Shown: one piece after another, positions 1,229 to 48,237 of the stretch
Layout of the letters: each line of letters begins with the position of its first letter
How positions within the stretch are numbered: position 1 is the first letter of the stretch
Assembly: GCA_027858315.1 (NCBI GenBank)
Contig: JAQICV010000077.1
Coordinates: 6,186 to 70,185 of the forward strand
Reading direction: 5' to 3'
Origin: Candidatus Woesearchaeota archaeon
GTDB lineage: Archaea > Nanobdellota > Nanobdellia > Woesearchaeales > UBA583
DNA length: 64,000 nt
Made by a program: the position numbers and the translations under genes
Notes under the pieces: model-generated
The model's input: only the letters and a program-made list of their open reading frames with translations
Told to the model about the DNA's origin: nothing
Databases searched by the model: none

Positions 1229-3415
1229 TTGTATAGAATTAGAGTTTTTGGGATTGTGCAAGGTGTAGGATTTAGACCTTTTATTTATAATGAAGCTATA
1301 AAAAACAATATAAAAGGAACAGTTCAAAACACTGGAGATGGTGTTGAAATTATTTGTAATAATAAAGAATCAATATTAAGGATTTTGAAAACACCTCCAA
1401 AGCTTTCAAAAATTGAAAAAATAAAAATTGAAGAAGTTTTAAATTTGCCTGATTTTAAAGATTTTAAAATACTTGAAAGTGAAACTAGTAATTCTTACTC
1501 TCCAATTCCTGCTGATTTAAATTTATGTTCAGATTGCATTAAAGAAATGTTTGAAGTGAATAATCAAAGGTATAAATATTTTTTCATTTCATGTATTAAT
1601 TGTGGACCGAGATATTCTATAATAAAATCAACACCATATGACAGGAAGAAAACTACTCTAGATTTTTTTAATATTTGTAAGTTTTGTAATGAAGAATTTA
1701 AAGACCCTACAAATAGAAGATTCCATGCACAAACAATTGCATGTCCTGATTGTGGACCTCAACTTTCTTTGTACAAAAATGGAATTAAGATTGAAGGTAG
1801 TTGCCCAATAGAAGAAGTAGCTAAATTAATTAATAAAAATGAAGTTGTTGCTATTAAAGGAATAGGAGGATTTCACCTTGCTTGCTCAATTGAAGATGAA
1901 GCAATTTTAAGATTGAAGAAAATAACTCAAAGATTCCATAAGCCTTTTGCACTTATGGTAAAAAATGTTGCAATGATTGAGGGGTATGCAAAAATTAGTA
2001 AAAATGGACTTGAGCTTTTACAATCAAAAGAGAGGCCAATTGTTCTTCTTGAAAAGAAAGACTCAAATATTCTAAAAGAGATAAGTGAATTATCTAGTCT
2101 AGGTTTTATGCTACCTTATTCAGGAGTTCATTATTTATTATTTGAACATCTTGATTCTCCTATTGTTTTAACATCATCTAATTTGCCATCTTTCCCAATT
2201 ACCACTAAAAAAGAAGAGCAATTTACAGATTATGTCTTAGATTATAATCGAGATATTTCAAATAGTGTTGATGACTCAATTATTAAAGTAATTGGAAATG
2301 AAAAACTGATAATAAGGAGAAGTAGAGGATTTGCACCAAATGAGATTGAAATTCCTAAGAACTATCTAAATTTTTCAGAAGATATTTTAAGTGTGGGAGC
2401 TGAACTGAAGAATACTTTTTGTATTAAAAAAAATGATAAATTAATTCTCTCAGAACATATTGGAAATACTTATAATTTGGAAAATTTTGAAAACTTCAAA
2501 TCTAGAATTTTTAAGTTAATGGAATTTACAAAGTCCACCCCAAAAATAATTTTGAGAGACTCAAATGTAAACTTTAATACTTCACAATTTGCAGAAGAAT
2601 TTTCAAAAGAGAAAAATATTGAACTATTCAATATTCAGCACCATATTGCTCATGGTTTTTCTGTTGCACTTGAACATGATTTGAAAGATTTTTTAGCTAT
2701 TGTTTGTGATGGTTTAGGGCTTGGAGAGGATGGGACTGCTTGGGGAGGAGAAGTATTTCATAATGATAAAAGAATTGGACATTTAGAATATCAAAGTTTG
2801 GTTGGTGGCGAGATAGCAAATAAAGAACCTAGGAGAATCTTAGTTGGGATTTTAGCTAAATTTATGAAACTTAATGAGATTGAAAAAATATTAGGTGAGA
2901 GTTTAGAAATTAAAACTTATTTTGAACAAAAAAAACAAAATTTTAATTGTGTTGAAACTTCAAGTGTTGGAAGAATCCTAGATTGTGTTTCTGTTCTTTT
3001 AGGATTCTCAGATAAGAACTATTATGAAGGTCGAGGCGCTATGCTTCTTGAGTCAAATTCTAGTTCAAAAATTAAATTATTTTTTGAACCAATTATTGAA
3101 AAAGAAAATAATTTATTTATTTTGAAAACTACTCCACTATTTGAATTCATCAAAAATAATCTTGATAAAATATCAAGAGAAGAACTTGCTCGTTTCGCGC
3201 AGATTTATATTGCAAAAGGATTATTTGAGATTGCGAAAAAATATGATGAAAAATTGCCAGTAGTTTTTAGTGGAGGGGTTGCATATAATGAAATAATAAC
3301 CTCATTTATGATTAAGAATAAAGTATTGTTAAATAAAGATATTCCTTGTGGTGATGGAGGAATTAGCGCAGGACAAATTGCATACTTTTTATGGAAAGAG
3401 AAAAATAAAAATTAA
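1229..3415 (+). CDS. hypF: [NiFe]-hydrogenase maturation carbamoyltransferase HypF
   Basis: 728 aa ORF with an acylphosphatase-like N-terminus (VQGVGFRPF), two CxxC-x18-CxxC zinc fingers, and YrdC-like and Kae1-like domains. Confidence 0.9.
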   Translation: MYRIRVFGIVQGVGFRPFIYNEAIKNNIKGTVQNTGDGVEIICNNKESILRILKTPPKLSKIEKIKIEEVLNLPDFKDFKILESETSNSYSPIPADLNLCSDCIKEMFEVNNQRYKYFFISCINCGPRYSIIKSTPYDRKKTTLDFFNICKFCNEEFKDPTNRRFHAQTIACPDCGPQLSLYKNGIKIEGSCPIEEVAKLINKNEVVAIKGIGGFHLACSIEDEAILRLKKITQRFHKPFALMVKNVAMIEGYAKISKNGLELLQSKERPIVLLEKKDSNILKEISELSSLGFMLPYSGVHYLLFEHLDSPIVLTSSNLPSFPITTKKEEQFTDYVLDYNRDISNSVDDSIIKVIGNEKLIIRRSRGFAPNEIEIPKNYLNFSEDILSVGAELKNTFCIKKNDKLILSEHIGNTYNLENFENFKSRIFKLMEFTKSTPKIILRDSNVNFNTSQFAEEFSKEKNIELFNIQHHIAHGFSVALEHDLKDFLAIVCDGLGLGEDGTAWGGEVFHNDKRIGHLEYQSLVGGEIANKEPRRILVGILAKFMKLNEIEKILGESLEIKTYFEQKKQNFNCVETSSVGRILDCVSVLLGFSDKNYYEGRGAMLLESNSSSKIKLFFEPIIEKENNLFILKTTPLFEFIKNNLDKISREELARFAQIYIAKGLFEIAKKYDEKLPVVFSGGVAYNEIITSFMIKNKVLLNKDIPCGDGGISAGQIAYFLWKEKNKN

Positions 3416-4401
3416 CAAATTCTAGGAACTATTTTTCCTGAAGGCATTTGAAGAATTCTTGAACCTAAAGATGTTTTTAAAATTACTTTTCCTTGCTTGT
3501 TTGAAGTAGATTTTACTTCCCCGATTATTTGCGCCATTTCGTTAAACTTTTTTAATTCCTCCAAAACCTTATTTGAATTATTCTTACTTACAATAGTTAT
3601 AATTCTTCCTTCGTTTGCTAACTCTAGAGGATCAAGTCCTAAAAGATTACATGCAGTTCTTACCTCTTTTTTTATAGGAATTTTTGAGTCTTCAAGTTCT
3701 ATCTCGATTCCTTTTTCATTTGATACTTCATTTAGAACTGATGCAATACCTCCTCTAGTTGGATCTTTTGCAAATTTAATTAAGTTTCTAATTTTTTTCA
3801 TTTCAAGATATATTGATTTTGAGTCAGAGATTATTTGTGTTTGAAAATCAAACCTTTGAGACAACAATGCTACAGCATGTTCACCAATACCTCCAGAGAT
3901 TATAATTTTATCTCCAGTTATAATTTCTTCATCTATTATTTTTTTAGTAATACCTACACCTGAAACATTTATTACAATTTTATCTATTGCTCCTTTTTCC
4001 ATAACTTTTGTATCACCAGTTACAATTGGAATTTGTTGTTCTTTTGAGATTTTATTTATTGACCCCATTATTTCATTTAGAGTTTCTATATCAAATCCTT
4101 CTTCGATGATTAAAGACAATGAAAGACCAACCGGGTCAGCGCCCATAACTGCTAAATCATTTATAGTACCACAAATTGCTAGATGACCTATATCTCCTCC
4201 GGGAAATTTTATAGGATTTACTACAAAACTATCAGTTGTAAAACAAAGTGTATCTTTATTTGGAAGTTCAAATGTTGCAGAGTCGTTAGTAAAATTTTCC
4301 CATTTATCTCCTCGGTATAAATTACCTAAAAATGAATTCAATAAATCGTTCATTTCCCTTCCACCATTTCCTTGTTCTAAAGATATATTCTTTTTTTCCA
4401 T
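3412..4401 (-). CDS. hypE: hydrogenase maturation factor HypE
   Basis: 329 aa ORF with the PurM/AIR-synthase-like fold and the HypE-specific C-terminal PRIC motif. Confidence 0.9.
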   Translation of the reverse strand: MEKKNISLEQGNGGREMNDLLNSFLGNLYRGDKWENFTNDSATFELPNKDTLCFTTDSFVVNPIKFPGGDIGHLAICGTINDLAVMGADPVGLSLSLIIEEGFDIETLNEIMGSINKISKEQQIPIVTGDTKVMEKGAIDKIVINVSGVGITKKIIDEEIITGDKIIISGGIGEHAVALLSQRFDFQTQIISDSKSIYLEMKKIRNLIKFAKDPTRGGIASVLNEVSNEKGIEIELEDSKIPIKKEVRTACNLLGLDPLELANEGRIITIVSKNNSNKVLEELKKFNEMAQIIGEVKSTSNKQGKVILKTSLGSRILQMPSGKIVPRIC

Positions 4402-4403
4402 TT

Positions 4404-5411
4404 TTATTTTACATATTTAAACGCAATCCCGCATGCGCCTTCAGTTTCTGAAACCATGCATGCTCCAATTGGATTTTGAGGAGTGCAAACTTTGCCAAAT
4501 AATTTACAGTCTTTTGGTTCACATAATCCTTTAATTATTTCACCACATCTACAAGCAGGGTTTGAAAATGATTTTACATTTTTTAATATGTTTGCATATT
4601 TTATTTTTGCATTGATTTTATCATTTTTTGGTTCAAGACCTGAGTTTTTTAAAATCCCCAAACCTCTCCATTCCGAGTCGATAAGTTTCATGTTATCTCT
4701 TATAATCTTTCTTGCTTTAGGATTACCATCTTCTTTAACAACTTCAGTATAATCATTTATTACCTCATTTTTTCCTTCTTTGATTAGAACTAATAATTTA
4801 TATATTCCTCTTATGATTTGTTCTTTTTTAAAACCTGAGATTACTTGAGGAACTTTTAATTCATCAAATACCTTACTACCAATTATACATGCAACATGTC
4901 CTGGGTCTATGAATCCATCAACCTTTGTTTTTGTAGTTATTTCTCTCATTGGAGGAGGCATAATTTTATGAGCAGAATATACACAAATTCCTTTTTCTAA
5001 AAGATAAGCAGTCATAGGAGTTGTTGTTTCAAAACCAATTCCAAAAAAAACTCTATGTTTATTTTCATCTTTTAACATCTCAGTTGCAGTATAAATCATC
5101 TTCACATCTGCTCCAAGAGATTTTGCTTTTGCAAGCGAGAGTTTAGTTCCTGGAACATGCATCATATCTCCATAAGAAGCAACAGGTATTCCACTATTTG
5201 CTAGAGCTATCATATTATCTATATCTTTTTGTGATGTTACACATACAGGGCATCCTGGCCCAGAGATTAAATGAATATTTTTTGGAAGAATATCTCTTAT
5301 TCCATATTTCATAATAGTATTTGTATGGCCTCCACAAACTTCCATTATAGTTATTGTTCTATTATCGAATTCTTTTGCAATTTCTTCTATTTTTTTTAGG
5401 TAAATATTCAT
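4404..5411 (-). CDS. hypD: hydrogenase maturation factor HypD
   Basis: 335 aa ORF with the CGGHT and GPGCPVC motifs and C-terminal cysteine clusters. Confidence 0.9.
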   Translation of the reverse strand: MNIYLKKIEEIAKEFDNRTITIMEVCGGHTNTIMKYGIRDILPKNIHLISGPGCPVCVTSQKDIDNMIALANSGIPVASYGDMMHVPGTKLSLAKAKSLGADVKMIYTATEMLKDENKHRVFFGIGFETTTPMTAYLLEKGICVYSAHKIMPPPMREITTKTKVDGFIDPGHVACIIGSKVFDELKVPQVISGFKKEQIIRGIYKLLVLIKEGKNEVINDYTEVVKEDGNPKARKIIRDNMKLIDSEWRGLGILKNSGLEPKNDKINAKIKYANILKNVKSFSNPACRCGEIIKGLCEPKDCKLFGKVCTPQNPIGACMVSETEGACGIAFKYVK

Positions 5412-7398: not shown

Positions 7399-9132
7399 AT
7401 GAGTCTAAATAAAATCTCTATTAAAATAGGAGGTCCTGCAGGGTCTGGAGTTTTTACAATTGGTCTTTTGCTTTCGAAATATTTTCAAAGAGCAGGATTA
7501 AATGTTGTATATACTACTGATTATCCCTCTCTAATCAGAGGAGGACATAATACTTGCTGCGTTAGAGCAGAGAATGAAGAAATTAATGCTGAAGTTTTGA
7601 ACCATGATGTTTTAGTTGCACTTGATGATTTAACAATCACTGAAGATTTGAAACAATTAAACAAAGGAGCAGTTTTAATCTGTGATACAAAATCTACTTT
7701 TGAATCAGCAGATTATCAAGTTCTAAAAGTTGATTTTGATAAATTACTTGATGGAATGGATAAAAGATATTTCAATACTATTGCTTTTGGTTGTGTTATT
7801 GGTTTAATGGGTGAGGATGGAGATATGCTGAGAGATGCACTTGCAACTCATTTTAGAAAAAAATCTCAAGAAGTTGTTGAAGAAAATCTGAAAGCTGCTC
7901 AAGTTGGATACGATTTTGCAAAAGAGTTCTGTGTTCAAAATAATACTGGATTTTTAGGAAGAATTACTAAGACACAAAATTCTTTAGGAAATACTGTTTT
8001 TATGTCAGGAAATGATGCTGCTTGTGTTGCTGCTGTTAAAGCTGGAGTTAAATTTGTTGGAGAATATCCAATGACACCTTCTACTTCATTTTTACATTAC
8101 ATGGCTGCTCATGAATTAGATTACAATATTACAACAAAACAAACTGAAGATGAAATTGCTGCAATTAATACGGCAATTGGTGCTAGTGTTGCAGGAGTTA
8201 GGGCAATGACTGCTACTTCAGGTGGAGGTTTTGCATTAATGAATGAAGCTATTGGTTTTGCAGCTATTGCTGAAGCGCCAGTTGTGGTTTTTGAGTGTAT
8301 GAGAGGAGGTCCTTCAACTGGAATTCCTACATATACTGACCAAGGAGATTTGAAATTTGTAATTAATTCATCACAAGGAGAGTTCCCTATGGTTGTTTTA
8401 GCTCCAGGAGATATTGAAGAATGTTTTGAAGAGAGTTTTAATGCATTTAATTTAGCAGATATTTTACAAACACCAGTTATTGTTTTATTAGATAAACATC
8501 TTGCTGCATCTCATTTTACTGCTAAAAGATTTGATACTTCTAAATTAAAAGTAGATAGAGGAAAATACATCAATCTAAGTGATGAAGTTTTAGCTAATAA
8601 TAAAAGACATGAATTTACAGAGGATGGAATCTCAACTAGATTCAATCCAGGTCAACCTGGTGGTATATATACTAGTTCATCTTATGAACATGATGAAACT
8701 GGGTACACTTGTGAAGATTCTGAAAATCATGTAAAAATGATGGAGAAGAGGTTTAAGAAGTATGATGCAATTCCTAAAGAATTGTTAAGACCTAAGATGT
8801 ATGGACCGGAAGATGCTGATTTAACTATTGTTGGTTGGGGATCTACTAAAGGTGTAGCATTAGATGCAATTAAGTACTTGAACTCTGATGGACTTAAAGT
8901 AAACTATATGCATTTTGTATACATCAATCCTTTTGATAATGAAGAAGTTAAGAGTATGCTTGATAGTTGCAAAGATACAATTATTCTAGAAGCAAATTAC
9001 ACTGGACAATTAAGAGATATTATTAGAGAGAAAACTGGTTTCTACATCGAGAAGACTTATTTCAAATATGATGCAAGACCATTTTATTTTCAAGAAGTCT
9101 ACACTAAGATTAAGGAGGTATTGAAAAAATGA
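7399..9132 (+). CDS. 2-oxoacid:ferredoxin oxidoreductase, fused gamma/alpha subunit
   Basis: 577 aa ORF with an N-terminal gamma-like domain and an alpha-subunit transketolase-like domain. It overlaps the beta-subunit gene by 4 nt. Confidence 0.85.
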   Translation: MSLNKISIKIGGPAGSGVFTIGLLLSKYFQRAGLNVVYTTDYPSLIRGGHNTCCVRAENEEINAEVLNHDVLVALDDLTITEDLKQLNKGAVLICDTKSTFESADYQVLKVDFDKLLDGMDKRYFNTIAFGCVIGLMGEDGDMLRDALATHFRKKSQEVVEENLKAAQVGYDFAKEFCVQNNTGFLGRITKTQNSLGNTVFMSGNDAACVAAVKAGVKFVGEYPMTPSTSFLHYMAAHELDYNITTKQTEDEIAAINTAIGASVAGVRAMTATSGGGFALMNEAIGFAAIAEAPVVVFECMRGGPSTGIPTYTDQGDLKFVINSSQGEFPMVVLAPGDIEECFEESFNAFNLADILQTPVIVLLDKHLAASHFTAKRFDTSKLKVDRGKYINLSDEVLANNKRHEFTEDGISTRFNPGQPGGIYTSSSYEHDETGYTCEDSENHVKMMEKRFKKYDAIPKELLRPKMYGPEDADLTIVGWGSTKGVALDAIKYLNSDGLKVNYMHFVYINPFDNEEVKSMLDSCKDTIILEANYTGQLRDIIREKTGFYIEKTYFKYDARPFYFQEVYTKIKEVLKK

Positions 9133-10052
9133 ATGAAGAAATAAAAATTGAAGATGTGAATTTTGTTGGAGGAGATAATCTTAAATTTAGCCTTTTAGAT
9201 TTAGATTCTAAGCATGAGAGTCAATGGTGTCCTGGTTGTGGAAATTATGGTATTGTTATGGCAGTCAAGAATGCAATTCTTAAATTAGGTATTAATCCTA
9301 AGGATGTTCTAATTGTTTCAGGAATTGGTTGCGCTTCTAAGTTCCCTCATTATTTGAAAACTTATGGGATAGAGACTATTCATGGAAGAGCACTTCCAGT
9401 TGCAACTGGAGCTAAACTTGCAAACAAAGATTTACATGTAATTGTTGTTGGTGGAGATGGTGATGGTTATGGTATTGGTATGGGTCATTTAATGCATACT
9501 ATGAGAAGAAATATTAACATTACTTATTTAATTAATAATAATGAGATTTACGCTTTAACTAAAGGTCAAACTTCTCCAACTACACCTAAAGGAAAGAAGA
9601 CTGCTTCAACTCCTAATGGTTCAATTGAGACTCCAGTTAATCCAATGGCTCTAGCTATTGGTGGTGGTGCTACTTTTATTGCAAAGAGTTTTAGTGGTGA
9701 TATTAATCATATGAGCGATACTATTGCTCGAGCAATTGCTCATAAGGGTTTCTCAATTATTGATATTGCGCAAATCTGTGTATCATTTAATCCTTCAATG
9801 AATTTTAAATGGTATAAAGATAGAATTTATAATATTGATGATTTACCTGATTATAATAATAAGAATAAGTCTTGGGGTATGATTCATGCTCTTGAGAGTC
9901 AAGATGATAAGATTGGAATTGGAATATACTATCATAATGATGATGACAGAGAAACCTATATTGATGATCTGCCAGAAGATGAAAAATTATCTCTAGTAAG
10001 ACAAGATATAAATGATATTGACATTGAAAATATCCTTGATAACTACGAGTAG
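9129..10052 (+). CDS. 2-oxoacid:ferredoxin oxidoreductase beta subunit (TPP-binding)
   Basis: 307 aa ORF with the WCPGCGNYG motif and a GDG thiamine-diphosphate-binding motif. Confidence 0.85.
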   Translation: MNEEIKIEDVNFVGGDNLKFSLLDLDSKHESQWCPGCGNYGIVMAVKNAILKLGINPKDVLIVSGIGCASKFPHYLKTYGIETIHGRALPVATGAKLANKDLHVIVVGGDGDGYGIGMGHLMHTMRRNINITYLINNNEIYALTKGQTSPTTPKGKKTASTPNGSIETPVNPMALAIGGGATFIAKSFSGDINHMSDTIARAIAHKGFSIIDIAQICVSFNPSMNFKWYKDRIYNIDDLPDYNNKNKSWGMIHALESQDDKIGIGIYYHNDDDRETYIDDLPEDEKLSLVRQDINDIDIENILDNYE

Positions 10053-21190: not shown

Positions 21191-22402
21191 AAGCCCTCCG
21201 ACCGGGAGTAGTTTAATGTTAGAAATACAAGATATCAACAATAAAGAACTAAATACGTTGATATTAATAAATTTTAAAACTTAAATAAAAGTTCACCTCC
21301 TTTAATTAGGTGACTACAAAAATGAAAAATGAAAAAAATGTAGTCTCCTATTTCAAAGTTTTCTTGTACTGCTTTATTAAAAACTGAATTGTTGGTTTTA
21401 AATTGTTATTTTGAGAGTATTCTCTTAAAGAGAAGTAATACTCTTGTCTATCTTCTAAAAATATGTTAATTGGAGGATAATTATTTTTTAATAATATGTA
21501 ATTTAGTAATAATCTACCAACTCTGCCATTTCCATCTTGAAATGGATGAATATGTTCAAATTGATTATGGACTAGGGCTGCTAAGATCAGAGGTTTAAAG
21601 TTATTCTTATTCTCATTATACCAATGTATAAATTCGTCCAATTCTTCTTTTAATTGTGAGACAGGTGCTCCTTGATGAATGATATCACCTTGATTATTTT
21701 TTATTACAACTTCAACATCCCTTAACTTCCCTGCAAATCCTTTTGAACCTTTAAAACAAATTTCATGTAATTTTAATATTAAATCTAAAGAAACATCATC
21801 CTTGCAAGTGTTAATGAAATCTACGGCCAATCCAACATTAATAGTTTCTAGTTCATCTTTAGTTTTAGGTAAAGTTTTCTCTTCAAGTAAATCCTTAACT
21901 TCATCTTCAAGAACAGATGAACCTTCAATTGCATTAGTATTATATACGAAATCTTCTTTAAATTTCTCAAATTCTGAATTTTGAAGATGAATTATTTTTA
22001 ACTTAGAATCATATTTATTTAATTGATTAATTTGAGAAGAAGATAAAAAAAAATTAAAGACTTCTGTTTTTAACTCTTCAATTTGTTCAAGAATTATTTG
22101 CTGTGCCCTAGATTTATTTTTTTCTAAATCTTTTGCAGATAAATTTTGTCCTAGATACCTAGAAATTTTTTTTACTTTATCATTATCTCTATAAGAATGA
22201 GATAAATAGTATTTTATATTTTTTCCAGATTTTCTTTTTTCTACAAACATAGTAATAATTAGGTGACTACAATTTATAAATATATCTTCTTATGTAGTCA
22301 CCTTTCTTAAAATTTAGGTTCACCTCCTACCAAAAGTCAAGAATCTAGAAAATACATAATACGGTTCGCCTCCCGCGTTTTTTAAAAGCCCTCCGACCGG
22401 GA
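21191..22402. mobile_element. ~1.2 kb tRNA-Glu-associated cassette carrying a Fic gene, flanked by a 17-bp direct repeat of the tRNA 3' end
   Basis: 'aagccctccgaccggga' occurs at 21191-21207 and again at 22386-22402, inside the tRNA. Internal repeats: 'aggtgactaca' at 21308 and 22261, its inverse at 22293, and 'gttcRcctcc' at 21291, 22318 and 22364. Confidence 0.6.
21348..22250 (-). CDS. Fic-family protein (AMP-transferase), class II with inhibitory TxxxEG helix
   Basis: 300 aa ORF with the Fic motif HPFQDGNGRVGR and an upstream TNAIEG inhibitory motif. Confidence 0.85.
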   Translation of the reverse strand: MFVEKRKSGKNIKYYLSHSYRDNDKVKKISRYLGQNLSAKDLEKNKSRAQQIILEQIEELKTEVFNFFLSSSQINQLNKYDSKLKIIHLQNSEFEKFKEDFVYNTNAIEGSSVLEDEVKDLLEEKTLPKTKDELETINVGLAVDFINTCKDDVSLDLILKLHEICFKGSKGFAGKLRDVEVVIKNNQGDIIHQGAPVSQLKEELDEFIHWYNENKNNFKPLILAALVHNQFEHIHPFQDGNGRVGRLLLNYILLKNNYPPINIFLEDRQEYYFSLREYSQNNNLKPTIQFLIKQYKKTLK

Positions 22403-22463
22403 TTTGAACCCGGGTCCCCGGCTCGAAAGGCCGGAATGATTGGCCGGACTACACCATCGGAGG
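22389..22463 (-). tRNA. tRNA-Glu (anticodon UUC)
   Basis: Cloverleaf with anticodon loop CTTTCGA, T-arm GGGTTCAAATCCC and a 7-bp acceptor stem with C1:G72. No encoded CCA. Confidence 0.85.
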
Positions 22464-22557
22464 ATTATATAGAAATAAACCTTTTATTTGTCCGTTTGTT
22501 ATAATTAAAAGGAACTAATTTCCCTTTAAAAAGTTTTTTGTAAATTCTAGCGGCCCC

Positions 22558-22632
22558 AGGGAGATTCGAACTCCCGATCCACAGCTTAGAAGGCTGTTAT
22601 CATATCCAGGCTAGACCATAGGGCCACAATAA
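22558..22632 (-). tRNA. tRNA-Arg (anticodon UCU)
   Basis: Cloverleaf with anticodon loop CTTCTAA and T-arm GGGAGTTCGAATCTCCC. Confidence 0.8.
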
Positions 22633-31882: not shown

Positions 31883-32182
31883 ATGAGCGAAGTACAAAAT
31901 CTAATTACGAAGGAAAAACTTGAGAAGTATTTTGATATTACAGGTAGAGCTCTTAAAAAATTAAAACTAGCCTGCCCTGATAAGACTCATTTAGATAAAA
32001 TTGCTAAAGATTATCTTAATATGGCTCAAACCTATTTTAACGATGCAAAACACTTTGAAGAACAAAGTGATTGGATTAATGCATTTGCTGCTCTGAATTA
32101 TGCTCACGGATGGTTAGATGCAGGTGCTAGACTTGGAGTATTTGATGTCGAACACGATTCAGTTCTTTTTACTGTTGATTGA
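31883..32182 (+). CDS. conserved hypothetical protein
   Basis: 99 aa helical ORF. Its last 35 bp are duplicated at 32248-32282. Confidence 0.35.
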   Translation: MSEVQNLITKEKLEKYFDITGRALKKLKLACPDKTHLDKIAKDYLNMAQTYFNDAKHFEEQSDWINAFAALNYAHGWLDAGARLGVFDVEHDSVLFTVD

Positions 32183-32278
32183 GTGAGATATCAAATTTAG
32201 ATGCTTTGTGTTAGCAAAGTTCCGAACGAATTTTATGAGTGACTGAATTGAACATGATTCAGTATTATTTACTGTTGA

Positions 32279-33700
32279 TTAATCTTTTAATTTATCAGTA
32301 TTAAAGTGTAATTTTTGAACTAATTCACGATTAATAAAAATCCCTTCTAAGATTTCCCTTCTTTTTTCATAATTCACATCAATTAAAGTTTTTCCATTAA
32401 GATATAGTATATCAAATGCCTTTACTACTACATTGATATGTGATACTACTGAGATTTCTTTTGTCAAAATTCTTCTTGATAGAATTTGAAATTCTAAAAA
32501 CTCTTCTTTGTCAAAGTCATACCCAACACATTCAGTATCTAATACGAAACTTAGGTCTGAAAAATTATCTTTTATGAATTCAACAACTTCAGGAAATTGT
32601 TTAGTTATATTATCTAAGTTTCTTGAAAATAATTCTATTTCCCCTTTTTTGTTGTGTATCTGAACTCTTAATCCATCATATTTATAGTCTAAAAATGCAG
32701 GAGTCCCAGTAAGTTCTAAACTTTCTTTAATTGTATTCTTTCTTGTTCCAAGCATACTTTTAATTGGATTTCCTAAAATAATCTCAAAATTTAAAATATT
32801 TAAAATGTCGTCATCAAGTTCTCTTAGTAATTTTCTAAATGAGTTTAATAGATTGTATTTTTTTTCAAAATATTGTGTGAATGCGTTATACACTTCTCTT
32901 GGATTTGAAGATTTTAGTATTTGTTTTTCCTTATTTCTCCTTAGAGCAAATTCTATCGGTTTTATTTCATATTCAATGTCATAATCAAGTAAGCTTGTTT
33001 CTTTTTTTGGCGTTTCAAGTTCAACGATTTGGTATTTTCTTTGCGCTAATTCATCTTGTTCTTTTAAGTCTAGTTTAGTTTTACATTTTAAACAATTTGA
33101 TAAATTTAAATTCACATATAGGCATTTAGGACATATCAAATGAATCCCAAGAATATTTGGAAAATATGCATTAACTGCAGCTTCTCTTAGAACTCCTTCT
33201 GATACCCCAATCCTTAAATCATCAATTAATAGTCTTGAAAGATATTTGTATTCAACATCAGAATTAGCGTATAAGTATAAATTACTCAAAATCTCTTTTT
33301 TCTTTTTATTGCTGTTTGTTCCACTAATTGATGCTATTTCATCTAAAGATTTGTTAATGAATTCAATTGTTAATTTTTTACTTAGTAAACTTTGTTGATA
33401 TTTTTCTTTTAAAACTTCTACACTAACTGAACCTAAATCTCCAAGTTTGTTGAACTTTTTTTCAACGCCTCTCTCACTAGTTTTGGAAATAGAACTAATA
33501 ACTGAAAATATTGTCTTTAATGAAATTCCTAGATTTTTCTTATTAATTTCTCTTTGATAATTTTTTGCTAAGATGTCAAATACGATTTTTGCATCTTTTT
33601 TATTTTCAAGCAAAAAATCTCTTAGAATTAAGACTTTCTCTAATCTTTTAGATCTTTTATCTAAATTTTCAAAAAGCTTTGCAATCTCTAAAAACTCCAT
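32279..33700 (-). CDS. ATP-dependent DNA ligase, apparently lacking the C-terminal OB domain
   Basis: 473 aa ORF with a DNA-binding N-terminus, motif I KYDGLR, VLDTE and FDILY. It ends soon after motif IV. A CPKC..CLKC zinc ribbon is inserted. Confidence 0.7.
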   Translation of the reverse strand: MEFLEIAKLFENLDKRSKRLEKVLILRDFLLENKKDAKIVFDILAKNYQREINKKNLGISLKTIFSVISSISKTSERGVEKKFNKLGDLGSVSVEVLKEKYQQSLLSKKLTIEFINKSLDEIASISGTNSNKKKKEILSNLYLYANSDVEYKYLSRLLIDDLRIGVSEGVLREAAVNAYFPNILGIHLICPKCLYVNLNLSNCLKCKTKLDLKEQDELAQRKYQIVELETPKKETSLLDYDIEYEIKPIEFALRRNKEKQILKSSNPREVYNAFTQYFEKKYNLLNSFRKLLRELDDDILNILNFEIILGNPIKSMLGTRKNTIKESLELTGTPAFLDYKYDGLRVQIHNKKGEIELFSRNLDNITKQFPEVVEFIKDNFSDLSFVLDTECVGYDFDKEEFLEFQILSRRILTKEISVVSHINVVVKAFDILYLNGKTLIDVNYEKRREILEGIFINRELVQKLHFNTDKLKD

Positions 33701-37321: not shown

Positions 37322-37393
37322 GCTCCTGTAGTACAATGGCTAGTATCCCGGCCTTCCAAGCCGGTGATCTGGGTTCGAATCCCAGCAGGTGCA
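37322..37393 (+). tRNA. tRNA-Gly (anticodon UCC)
   Basis: Cloverleaf with anticodon loop CTTCCAA and T-arm CTGGGTTCGAATCCCAG. There is one T:T mismatch at acceptor position 3. Confidence 0.75.
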
Positions 37394-38164: not shown

Positions 38165-38239
38165 CCCTCTGGCCGGGATTTGAACCCGGGTCACAGCCTT
38201 GAGAGGGCTGCATGATTGGCCGAACTACACTACCAGAGG
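38165..38239 (-). tRNA. tRNA-Glu (anticodon CUC)
   Basis: Cloverleaf with anticodon loop CTCTCAA and T-arm GGGTTCAAATCCC. It is a close paralog of tRNA-Glu(UUC). Confidence 0.85.
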
Positions 38240-41069: not shown

Positions 41070-41237
41070 AATTTAAAATAATAGAGGAGGGAGGGATACG
41101 AGAAATTTTTCTTCGAAATAATTTCTGGACAATTTGAACAATAATAAAAATTCGGGAAATTTTTAAACAAATTGAATAATTCAATTAGGTTCAAATAGTT
41201 TGAACCTTCAATCACAATTTATAGAAAATAGGTGAGG
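41070..41237. repeat. miniature element 3' of tRNA-Cys: att-like duplication plus palindromic hairpin
   Basis: 'gagggagggat' at 41087-41097 repeats the tRNA 3' end at 41227-41237. The hairpin is agaaatttttcttcgaaataatttct at 41101-41126. The body is homologous to 48027-48147. Confidence 0.55.
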
Positions 41238-41294
41238 GAGGGATTTGAACCCTCGATCACAGGGTTGCAGCCTATTGCCTTAACCACTTGGCCA
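41223..41294 (-). tRNA. tRNA-Cys (anticodon GCA)
   Basis: Cloverleaf with anticodon loop CTGCAAC and discriminator U73, which is typical of tRNA-Cys. Confidence 0.85.
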
Positions 41295-41393
41295 CCCCAC
41301 CACAAGTAAATATTAATTATATTTGTTTTATAAAGGTTTCTTACAAAGAAACTTCCGAAGAAATCTCTGATTTGTGACTGAAATTTTCCTATA

Positions 41394-44063: not shown

Positions 44064-44684
44064 TTATAAAAGTTCTTTAAATTCTTGAATATTTTCTACC
44101 AAATAATCTGGATTAAATTTTTCAAGTAATTTTTTAGAGTTATAACCCCAACTAACACTTATACATTTTACTCCTGCAGCTTTGGATGCTTCAATATCTC
44201 TAATCTCATCTCCAACATAATATACTTCTTCTTTATTTAGATTATTTTCATCAATTATTTTTTGAATGTGTTTTGCTTTTCCAAATAAAGAGGATTTGTA
44301 GTATTGTTTGTCAAAGAAATCTAATTTCTCTTTTTTGAATATTTTTTCAACAAATTCTTTGTTGTTAGAAGTTAAAATGTATAGTTTATGATTTTTACTT
44401 TTTAGATGTTCGAATAAAGTTTTTATTCTTTCAAAAGGTTTTACTTCGGAGTCCCTTTTATTAAAATCTCGTTTTATTTTCCAAACAATATATAATATCT
44501 GTAATTTATTAAGTTTAAATTCTTTGATTATATCATGCAAGGATTTATTTTCTATCAAATTGTATAGTCCTTTTTTACTCACTTCAATTCCAGATTTATT
44601 TGCATTTAAATATAGACAATCAATTAATAAATCTAAACTGTTAAGTATTGTTCCATCTACATCAAATATTAGAGTTTTACTCAT
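44064..44684 (-). CDS. HAD-superfamily hydrolase
   Basis: 206 aa ORF with HAD motif I IFDVDGTI and C-terminal motifs. Confidence 0.6.
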   Translation of the reverse strand: MSKTLIFDVDGTILNSLDLLIDCLYLNANKSGIEVSKKGLYNLIENKSLHDIIKEFKLNKLQILYIVWKIKRDFNKRDSEVKPFERIKTLFEHLKSKNHKLYILTSNNKEFVEKIFKKEKLDFFDKQYYKSSLFGKAKHIQKIIDENNLNKEEVYYVGDEIRDIEASKAAGVKCISVSWGYNSKKLLEKFNPDYLVENIQEFKELL

Positions 44685-45779
44685 TTTTGAACTCCAATAA
44701 AAAAATGTCTTTGATATTTATTACAGGTTTTGAATGTCTTAATATGTCATCTTGACCAATTCTAGGACAAGCAGTATTTACCCAACATTCTACGAATGGG
44801 AAATTTTCCATTTCACTATCCAAGAAATTATCTGAAACAAAATAATAAAATTCTTTATCTTTGTATTGGTCTTTTAATTTTAAAGCTGATTCTTTGTATT
44901 CTTGTCCCCATTTTGATGAAACAAAAACTCCGATAATGTTTGAAGTATAAAATTTTAAAAGATTTCCTTTTTTCTTTTTTAAGTATTTTTCAATATGAGT
45001 TTTATCTATTACTTCAATTAATTCTTGAACTATATTTAAAATAATTACTGGCTTGATTTTATCCTGATTTTCTTGAGCTAGTAGAATTGCATTTGGATGA
45101 AAATATCCATCACCAATATATACAAATCCATCAACTTTTGAAATGTCTAAATTTAAATTGTCTACATAGGAATCACACCCTAGAATTTGTCCTTTAAATT
45201 CTGCTCTATGAGGTTTAGTAATTATTATATTGTATCCTTCTTTTTCTAAAAGAGATTTTACTATTTCTAATTTTGGAATAAATTGAATTGCGCAGTATAT
45301 AGCAATTGTTTTTTTTTCACCAAGTGTTTCTTTTAATTTTTTAGTAAAATCTTGTGGTATTATGAAGTCTATTCCAAAATTTGCATTTAATAATTTTATT
45401 TTCATTTTTGGACCACCTCCAAAAATGAAGAAATTTGTTCCAAATTTCTTAACAATCCAATACTAAGTATTTTGCCTTGTTTCATTCTTTACCACATCTC
45501 CTTTTTCTTAATGTATACAGCATGACCCCATTGAACACATAAGTCAAAACCCAATTTATCTAAGTGGTGAGGGATGTCACATGCACCAAAACATGTACCA
45601 AAATATGAAAAATAATCTGCTTTTGTTTTTTCTTTTAGTTCATCAATTATCTCTTTTGAGTAATATTTTAGTCCATCCGGAAACTGAAGAAGCACTAATT
45701 TGTGATTATTAGAATTTATATCATCTATTAATTTGTCAATTTCTAAATCATAATATGTTTTGTACTTTTTCTCACTCAT
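44677..45779 (-). pseudogene. diphthamide biosynthesis Dph2 (2-(3-amino-3-carboxypropyl)histidine synthase), split in two frames
   Basis: The N-terminal 96 aa (LLQFPDGL, GTCFGACD, WGHA) lie at 45489..45779. The C-terminal 242 aa (GQILGCDS, GDGYFHP) lie at 44677..45405. A stop plus a frame change fall in the 83-nt gap. Confidence 0.55.
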
Positions 45780-47996: not shown

Positions 47997-48177
47997 TTAG
48001 AATTATGAAAATGTGGCCATACGGATACGAGAAATTTTTCTTTGAAATAATTTCTGGAACATTGTTAAAACAAAGTACGAGAAATTTTACTACACAACAA
48101 TTTTTACTTCATAAAAATAGTTTGAACTCTCTTCAAATCTTATTCAATTAGAATTACGAAAACGTGGCCACGCGGAT
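47997..48177. repeat. miniature element 3' of tRNA-Pro: ~30-bp att-like duplication plus palindromic hairpin
   Basis: 'ttagaattaYgaaaaYgtggccaYRcggat' occurs at 47997-48026 and 48148-48177. The hairpin is agaaatttttctttgaaataatttct at 48030-48055. Confidence 0.55.
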
Positions 48178-48237
48178 TTGAACCGCGGTCCAAGCGTCCC
48201 AAACGCCTGATGATAGACCAGACTACACTATGGCCAC
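48163..48237 (-). tRNA. tRNA-Pro (anticodon UGG)
   Basis: Cloverleaf with anticodon loop TTTGGGA (G37) and T-arm CGCGGTTCAAATCCGCG. Confidence 0.85.

Follow-up and report, generated by a model that had tools for sequence, protein, structure and literature searches.

Within a 64,000-nucleotide (nt) stretch of archaeal DNA (contig JAQICV010000077.1; referred to as the window), we examined an open reading frame (ORF) of 473 amino acids (aa) that resembles the N-terminal part of ATP-dependent DNA ligases. The source of the window is a metagenome-assembled genome (MAG) of Candidatus Woesearchaeota, and its GC content is low (23–33% per 2-kb segment, mostly 25–29%). On balance, we consider it probable that the ORF encodes the large fragment of a split ligase, with the C-terminal fragment supplied in trans by a separate gene. 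Sequence comparisons place the gene in a conserved family of C-terminally truncated ligase homologs in DPANN archaea. The literature that we searched yielded no account of this family or of any split or truncated ligase in DPANN.

The protein (NCBI MDA3856074.1, locus tag PF569_07470) carries the product label "hypothetical protein" at NCBI and "ATP-dependent DNA ligase I" at JGI. Consistent with an initial annotation of the window, which described a 473-aa ligase homolog without an OB domain, Pfam identified the DNA-binding domain (PF04675) and part of the adenylation, or nucleotidyltransferase, domain (PF01068), with no match to the OB domain (PF04679) anywhere in the protein. The score against the ligase model TIGR00574 was 189.5 bits, below the cut-off of 217.8, and the match covered model positions 2–318 of 527. 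A profile built from the family aligned to the Pyrococcus furiosus ligase (2CFM) only at residues 1–183, which correspond to the PF04675 region, and at residues 180–377 of 561. Alignment to archaeal ligases likewise placed no OB domain within the 473 aa. No intein-like sequence was found in the fragment.

The motifs KYDGLR and VLDTE are present as first described. FDILYLNG, however, which had been taken for motif IV, is motif IIIa, and the ORF continues for a tail of ~37 aa downstream of it. In full-length DPANN ligases, motif IV has the sequence EGVMVK and motif V the sequence LKVK; both, like the OB domain and its motif VI (ALRFPR), align past the end of the 473-aa protein. The protein is therefore predicted to stop within the adenylation domain and ahead of motif IV, not right after motif IV as initially annotated. 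By the same alignments, the missing part would amount to ~185 aa (the OB domain in full, including motif VI, plus motifs IV and V), more than the ~120 aa first estimated.

The AlphaFold2 model of the fragment has an overall predicted local distance difference test (pLDDT) score of 84. The score falls below 50 at residues 317–324 and 332–341, immediately ahead of motif I and at its beginning. Together with the partial match to PF01068 and the end of the 2CFM alignment at residue 377, these low-scoring stretches indicate that the nucleotidyltransferase domain is incomplete on its own. The AMP pocket of DNA ligases is lined by motifs IV and V, and self-adenylylation depends on motif VI of the OB domain. 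Without motifs IV, V, and VI, the fragment would therefore not be able to act as a ligase by itself.

To place the truncation in a broader context, we searched 5.8 billion protein clusters and recovered ~94 clusters with 43–92% identity to the 473-aa protein, all from Woesearchaeota/Nanoarchaeota MAGs or metagenomes. Nearly all of these proteins are 440–498 aa long, the remainder being shorter partial sequences, and they contain PF04675 and/or PF01068 but never PF04679. Scores drop from 277–1,001 bits within the truncated family to 221 bits for the first full-length ligases, which share 30–36% identity with the query. An exhaustive HMMER search over 1.84 billion representatives revealed a second truncated subclade (P0347, P0349, and P0351; 471–522 aa, 35–38% identity) with the same end point. 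The stop falls within a few residues of one position in every relative examined, and the ORF aligns with its homologs right up to its final residues. The initial annotation had allowed that the family might naturally lack the OB domain, and the shared end point across the ~94 clusters and the divergent subclade, in a gene that is under selection (see below), indicates that it does. Compared with full-length ligases, all truncated proteins are also missing the same 2 residues in the RILTK segment, a shared change that points to a single, ancient truncation. No member of the truncated family was found on viral contigs.

Residues that are invariant in the N-terminal parts of full-length ligases are also invariant in the truncated family, including K340, Y341, D342, G343, R345, R360, E390, F429, D430, and R447. 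Among close pairs of family members, the ratio of nonsynonymous to synonymous substitution rates (dN/dS) is 0.07–0.29. The gene is under purifying selection and is a functional gene rather than a pseudogene. Because the fragment is incomplete alone, yet its lysine and pocket residues have been kept by selection, completion in trans would be the simplest account. The breadth of the truncated family, its apparent origin in a single ancient event, the invariant residues, and the dN/dS values all favor a split ligase.

In such a split ligase, the N-terminal fragment would supply motifs I, III, and IIIa within the first three quarters of the nucleotidyltransferase domain, along with the DNA-binding domain and a zinc-ribbon insertion. 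The absent ~185 aa, comprising two strands with motifs IV and V followed by the OB domain with motif VI, would be encoded elsewhere in the chromosome by a gene of its own. A working ligase would then form by noncovalent reassembly of the two polypeptides, in the way proposed for the split genes of Nanoarchaeum equitans, and the arrangement would have become fixed in this Woesearchaeota/Nanoarchaeota clade. Single-chain ligases of 560–680 aa occur in other DPANN and archaea.

Four further observations favor a split: the break lies in a linker, two DPANN ligase genes from other assemblies carry a stop codon in or next to that linker, the window contains a split gene for a different protein, and Pfam scans of ~50 window ORFs identified no second ligase. 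The two interrupted ligase genes, L008 (4579–6480) and L213 (2–1315), are 55% identical to each other. Each has one in-frame stop (TAA in L008, within RRKMLERIVK-stop-EKNKIKLTDKF; TAG in L213, within KERR-stop-LLERSIK), and each is called as adjacent N- and C-terminal fragments. A distance of 9 codons separates the two stops, which lie in or beside the linker at which the truncated family ends. A third DPANN ligase gene, L168 (7142–8000), has an in-frame TAA. Ligase-like conserved sequence continues past each of the three stops, which could represent true adjacent splits, read-through, pseudogenes, or errors. The split gene in the window is that for Dph2 (diphthamide synthesis), whose two ORFs are adjacent, 83 nt apart, and in different frames.

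A different set of ligase ORFs (P0123, P0124, P0128, P0152, P0164, P0191, P0204, and P0212) is 336–339 aa long and lacks the DNA-binding domain. These eight ORFs begin at a conserved Met of the ..VMLA.KA.. segment, and some lie on long contigs (98 kb and 19 kb). They could reflect another type of split, in which the DNA-binding domain is separated from the catalytic core, or errors in gene calling.

Several results weigh against a split ligase. The stops in L008 and L213 are possibly sequencing errors or pseudogenes, and the search that recovered these genes itself selected for the position of the break; therefore, they indicate only that a break in the linker is plausible. In addition, the C-terminal part was not detected near the gene. 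We searched all six frames of the window with tblastn, using 10 and then 24 full-length DPANN ligases as queries, and with a profile of the C-terminal 215 aa of ligases, and found no C-terminal ligase part in any frame. The same searches found none in the 9.6 kb past the end of the window, nor in flanks of up to 10 kb around the gene in 14 metagenome loci and seven relatives. In protein searches with C-terminal queries, which required shared 5-residue words and covered lengths from 1/1.75 to 1.75 times that of the query, no stand-alone ~190-aa C-fragment family appeared among the matches listed (70–215 aa and 111–339 aa). These matches were contig-end fragments, broken genes, and ORFs starting at the conserved Met of motif IV. 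We also scanned GTDB genome DNA with a codon-biased pattern for GYALRFPR, and the first 120 matches comprised only full-length ligases, edge fragments, or broken genes. Finally, the truncated family sits on a long branch, with a median of 202 bits against the N-terminal parts of full-length ligases, compared with 365 bits among the full-length ligases themselves. Such a branch would also be expected of a neofunctionalized paralog.

The failure to find a C-terminal fragment is nevertheless weak evidence because of the word indexing, the restriction to the matches listed, and the possible divergence of the partner. Given how unusually divergent the truncated family is, the C-terminal fragment may have diverged to a similar degree. 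Around the gene, no PF04679-containing neighbor was seen in the seven family members and 14 metagenome loci, and no conserved neighbors other than DUF357 and eIF2-beta were seen. Of the candidates for a C-terminal fragment followed up from the protein searches, L212 is a scaffold-gap artifact, L010 a frameshift, and L009 a deletion, and L008 and L213 are the genes with in-frame stops described above. A 175-aa ORF upstream of the gene in L003 encodes a membrane protein.

A distinctly less likely explanation, although one that deserves consideration, is that the protein is a truncated stand-alone paralog with a non-ligase or accessory role (nick or DNA binding, association with PCNA, or nucleotide binding) while a normal full-length ligase encoded elsewhere in the genome seals DNA. 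A paralog would account for the failure of every search to find a C-terminal fragment, for the intact DNA-binding domain, and for the long branch, with a best full-length match of 221 bits compared with 277–1,001 bits within the family. However, a noncatalytic role would need neither the catalytic lysine nor the pocket residues of motifs I, III, and IIIa, which are invariant down to 35% identity. By established enzymology, moreover, a nucleotidyltransferase fold that lacks the strands of motifs IV and V is incomplete and has no catalytic activity. No genome was shown to hold both the fragment and a full-length ligase. One apparent case, P0055 and L033, each on a contig of 51,737 bp, was a coincidence of length: the two loci differ in GC content (28.5% versus 39.6%), share no sequence, and represent two organisms.

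It is unlikely that the completing partner is unrecognizable as a ligase C-terminus, for example a very divergent or non-homologous OB-fold protein or a C-terminal fragment fused to another protein. The lack of a canonical C-fragment family among the matches listed, in either size range, fits such a partner, as does the faster evolution of the N-terminal fragment relative to its relatives. No candidate has emerged, however: DUF357 and eIF2-beta are the only conserved genes nearby, and the unannotated 150–220 aa ORFs of the window contain no ligase motifs. To our knowledge, motifs IV–VI are strongly conserved in every known ligase, which also argues against this possibility. We are slightly more doubtful still of a version in which the fragment is the sole Lig1-type protein, no canonical C-terminal part exists, and the active site is completed by a non-homologous or divergent partner or by a host factor. 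If that were true, it would represent a new way of building a replicative DNA ligase.

The initial annotation suggested that a rearrangement, marked by a duplicated 3' end next to the gene, had removed the C-terminus. The duplication is real. A 31-nt repeat (32150–32180 and 32250–32280) is present in two copies that are 87% identical, and a degenerate pattern that matches both finds two sites in the window but none in 100 shuffles. Copy 1 is the working 3' end of a convergent DUF357 gene, and copy 2 is a non-coding remnant with a stop codon ahead of it. The copies differ at four positions, always synonymously. Copy 2 adjoins the ligase stop codon, and its pseudo-stop and the ligase stop overlap in the palindrome GATTAATC. 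Between the two copies lie 69 nt that match no Rfam family and whose predicted fold is not unusual (z about −0.6 on both strands). Downstream of the ligase fragment, the gene order is DUF357, eIF2-beta, and Glu-tRNA synthetase. The convergent ligase/DUF357 pair is kept in relatives at 49–58% identity, with spacing that ranges from overlap (L019) through direct abutment (L214 and L215) and 28–47 nt (L003 and L001) to longer distances elsewhere. The pair is conserved in relatives that lack such a repeat.

Apart from the position of copy 2 beside the stop codon, little speaks for a recent local rearrangement that removed the C-terminus and left a pseudogene, and we give this explanation almost no credence. 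Repeat-free relatives at 35–92% identity share the end point, the DUF357 neighbor is conserved and abuts or overlaps the gene in some of them, dN/dS is low, and the end of the ORF aligns with those of its homologs. Copy 2 lies where DUF357 ends in L214 and L215. In our reading, it may be the former end of DUF357, for which a 100-bp event supplied a replacement. This event could have been a recombination in which a diverged allele took part, or an insertion, since decayed, that targeted the DUF357 end. It did not affect the ligase ORF and so was not the cause of the truncation.

It is similarly hard to credit that the true product is full length and that the stop reflects an assembly or sequencing artifact, programmed read-through, or a frameshift. 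In-frame stops and frameshifts do occur in ligase genes of other MAGs (L008, L010, L168, L212, and L213), but read-through of this stop would yield STVNNTESCSIQSLIKF..., which is unrelated to ligase. As first noted, the 96 nt between the stop and the conserved convergent gene cannot encode an OB domain, and no C-terminal part was found by tblastn or profile search in the six frames of the window. In addition, the identical protein is encoded on two contigs, one of 78,642 bp (NCBI) and one of 69,814 bp (JGI).

The initial annotation also identified a C4 zinc ribbon between the DNA-binding and adenylation domains, and our analysis agrees. C190, C193, C203, and C206 are invariant in 29 members of the fragment family. 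In the AlphaFold2 model, this region contains short beta strands at residues 182–184, 187–189, and 196–198, with pLDDT >90. No Pfam zinc-ribbon model matched the 473-aa protein. The two conserved CxxC pairs on beta hairpins nonetheless constitute a predicted C4 zinc ribbon. The ribbon is part of a ~115-aa insertion that is missing in the P. furiosus ligase and is found in a subset of the full-length DPANN ligases of 630–680 aa (P0096, P0101, P0350, P0353, and L184), as well as in the N-terminal part of L008; most of these have the CxxC...CxxC pattern. Its presence in these full-length proteins indicates that the insertion, and with it the zinc ribbon, is older than the truncation. In the second truncated subclade, all four cysteines are gone while the truncation and motif I are kept. 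The zinc ribbon was thus lost later in that one subclade.

Table 1. Positions of the ligase fragment, its domains and motifs, and associated features in the window
Feature	Coordinates	Strand	Basis
N-terminal large fragment ("N-half") of an ATP-dependent DNA ligase homolog	32279..33700	-	ORF of 473 aa
DNA-binding domain PF04675, aa 3-174	33179..33694	-	Pfam E 2.5e-28, profile positions 2-172 of 174
Insertion of ~115 aa between DNA-binding and adenylation domains, aa ~183-300	32801..33154	-	Alignments
Putative C4 zinc ribbon CPKC-x9-CLKC, aa 190-206	33083..33133	-	Cysteine pattern
Incomplete adenylation (nucleotidyltransferase) domain PF01068, aa 316-460	32321..32755	-	Profile positions 2-153 of 204
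Motif I KYDGLR, aa 340-345, catalytic lysine K340	32666..32683	-	K340 in all family members examined
Motif III VLDTE, aa 386-390	32531..32545	-	E390 invariant
Motif IIIa FDILYLNG, aa 429-436	32393..32416	-	F429 and D430 invariant
Native TAA stop of ligase fragment	32279..32281	-	Family-typical position; inside palindrome GATTAATC
DUF357 protein gene, convergent neighbor, 99 aa	31883..32182	+	Kept beside ligase fragment in relatives
Repeat copy 1, working DUF357 3' end (EHDSVLFTVD-stop)	32150..32182	+	Peptide conserved in relatives
Repeat copy 2, non-coding remnant (would encode EHDSVLFTVD-stop)	32250..32282	+	100 nt downstream of copy 1
Dph2 N-terminal part, 96 aa, PF01866 positions 1-60	45489-45779	-	Pfam
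Dph2 C-terminal part, 242 aa, PF01866 positions 77-288	44677-45405	-	Pfam

A TATA-like AT-rich element, TATATATTTATAAAG, can be read ~30 nt upstream of the start codon of the ligase fragment. Elsewhere, the window contains hydrogenase maturation genes encoding HypF (1229–3415), a HypE-like AIR-synthase-family protein (3412–4401), and HypD (4404–5411), followed by pyruvate:ferredoxin oxidoreductase subunits (7399–10052), a notable metabolism for a small DPANN genome. Six tRNA genes pass the Rfam threshold (22389–22625, 37322–37393, 38165–38239, 41230–41301, and 48163–48237), and the Rfam scan of the window detected no known RNA family besides tRNA. About 4–5 kb past the end of the window, a gene in L211 (15084–16304) encodes a member of the Nre family (Nre_N and Nre_C) of putative archaeal DNA-repair factors and not a ligase.

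Replication cannot proceed without DNA ligase, and in every cellular ATP-dependent ligase known to us the nucleotidyltransferase and OB domains are parts of one chain. If the ligase is split, the catalog of split genes in DPANN would reach the replication core, and it would include an enzyme long kept broken within its catalytic domain, in a lineage that spans to ~35% identity with its catalytic residues conserved. The two fragments would also offer a natural complementation pair for studying closure of the OB domain and motifs IV–VI over the active site. If no C-terminal fragment exists, the finding would be much more surprising. In practical terms, annotation pipelines label the fragment "hypothetical," so that the genomes that carry it may be scored as ligase-free.

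Compared with archaeal replicative (Lig1-type) ligases, for which we used structures from P. furiosus (2CFM), Saccharolobus solfataricus (2HIV), Thermococcus (3RR5 and 9DFA), and Archaeoglobus (3GDE), the fragment matches over its DNA-binding domain and the beginning of the adenylation domain (profile E of 8e-69 against 2CFM; Foldseek E of 1e-18 to 5e-21, with template modeling scores of 0.6–0.68). Motifs I, III, and IIIa contain the same invariant residues. Unlike these ligases, the fragment ends at approximately residue 377 of the 561 in 2CFM, lacks motifs IV, V, and VI and the OB domain, and has the additional C4-containing insertion. It is also more divergent than full-length DPANN ligases are among themselves. 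The insertion-bearing full-length DPANN ligases resemble the fragment in having the insertion at the same site, mostly with the cysteines, but they run on through motifs IV–VI and the OB domain (PF04679) and share 30–36% identity with it. A zinc module on an ATP-dependent ligase is also found in human DNA ligase III (LIG3), where the zinc finger is proposed to help in nick sensing. The LIG3 module is an N-terminal PARP-like zinc finger, whereas that of the fragment is a short internal ribbon between the DNA-binding and adenylation domains.

The closest parallels to a split ligase come from other split genes in DPANN. In a study of Nanoarchaeota, N. equitans is reported to have 10 split protein genes and Nst1 to have 8, including those for reverse gyrase, Glu-tRNA amidotransferase, RNA polymerase B, DNA polymerase, and alanyl-tRNA synthetase, among others (PMC3655853). 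The word "ligase" is absent from that paper, and DNA ligase is not named among the entries consulted in its split-protein table (PMC3655853). As in those cases, the ligase fragment corresponds to part of a protein that is a single chain elsewhere, its break is fixed in a lineage with reduced DPANN genomes, and it is under selection. In contrast to the Nanoarchaeota splits, the ligase is known from one fragment, the break lies within a catalytic domain rather than between domains, and the hosts are mesophilic, low-GC Woesearchaeota. Split Dph1/2 has been reported in Woesearchaeota, Pacearchaeota, and other DPANN (PMC6349945, in a passage citing Narrowe et al. 2018), and the split Dph2 of the window fits this report. 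It shares with the ligase fragment both its group of organisms and the window itself, but the Dph2 halves are adjacent, whereas the ligase fragment has no partner within reach.

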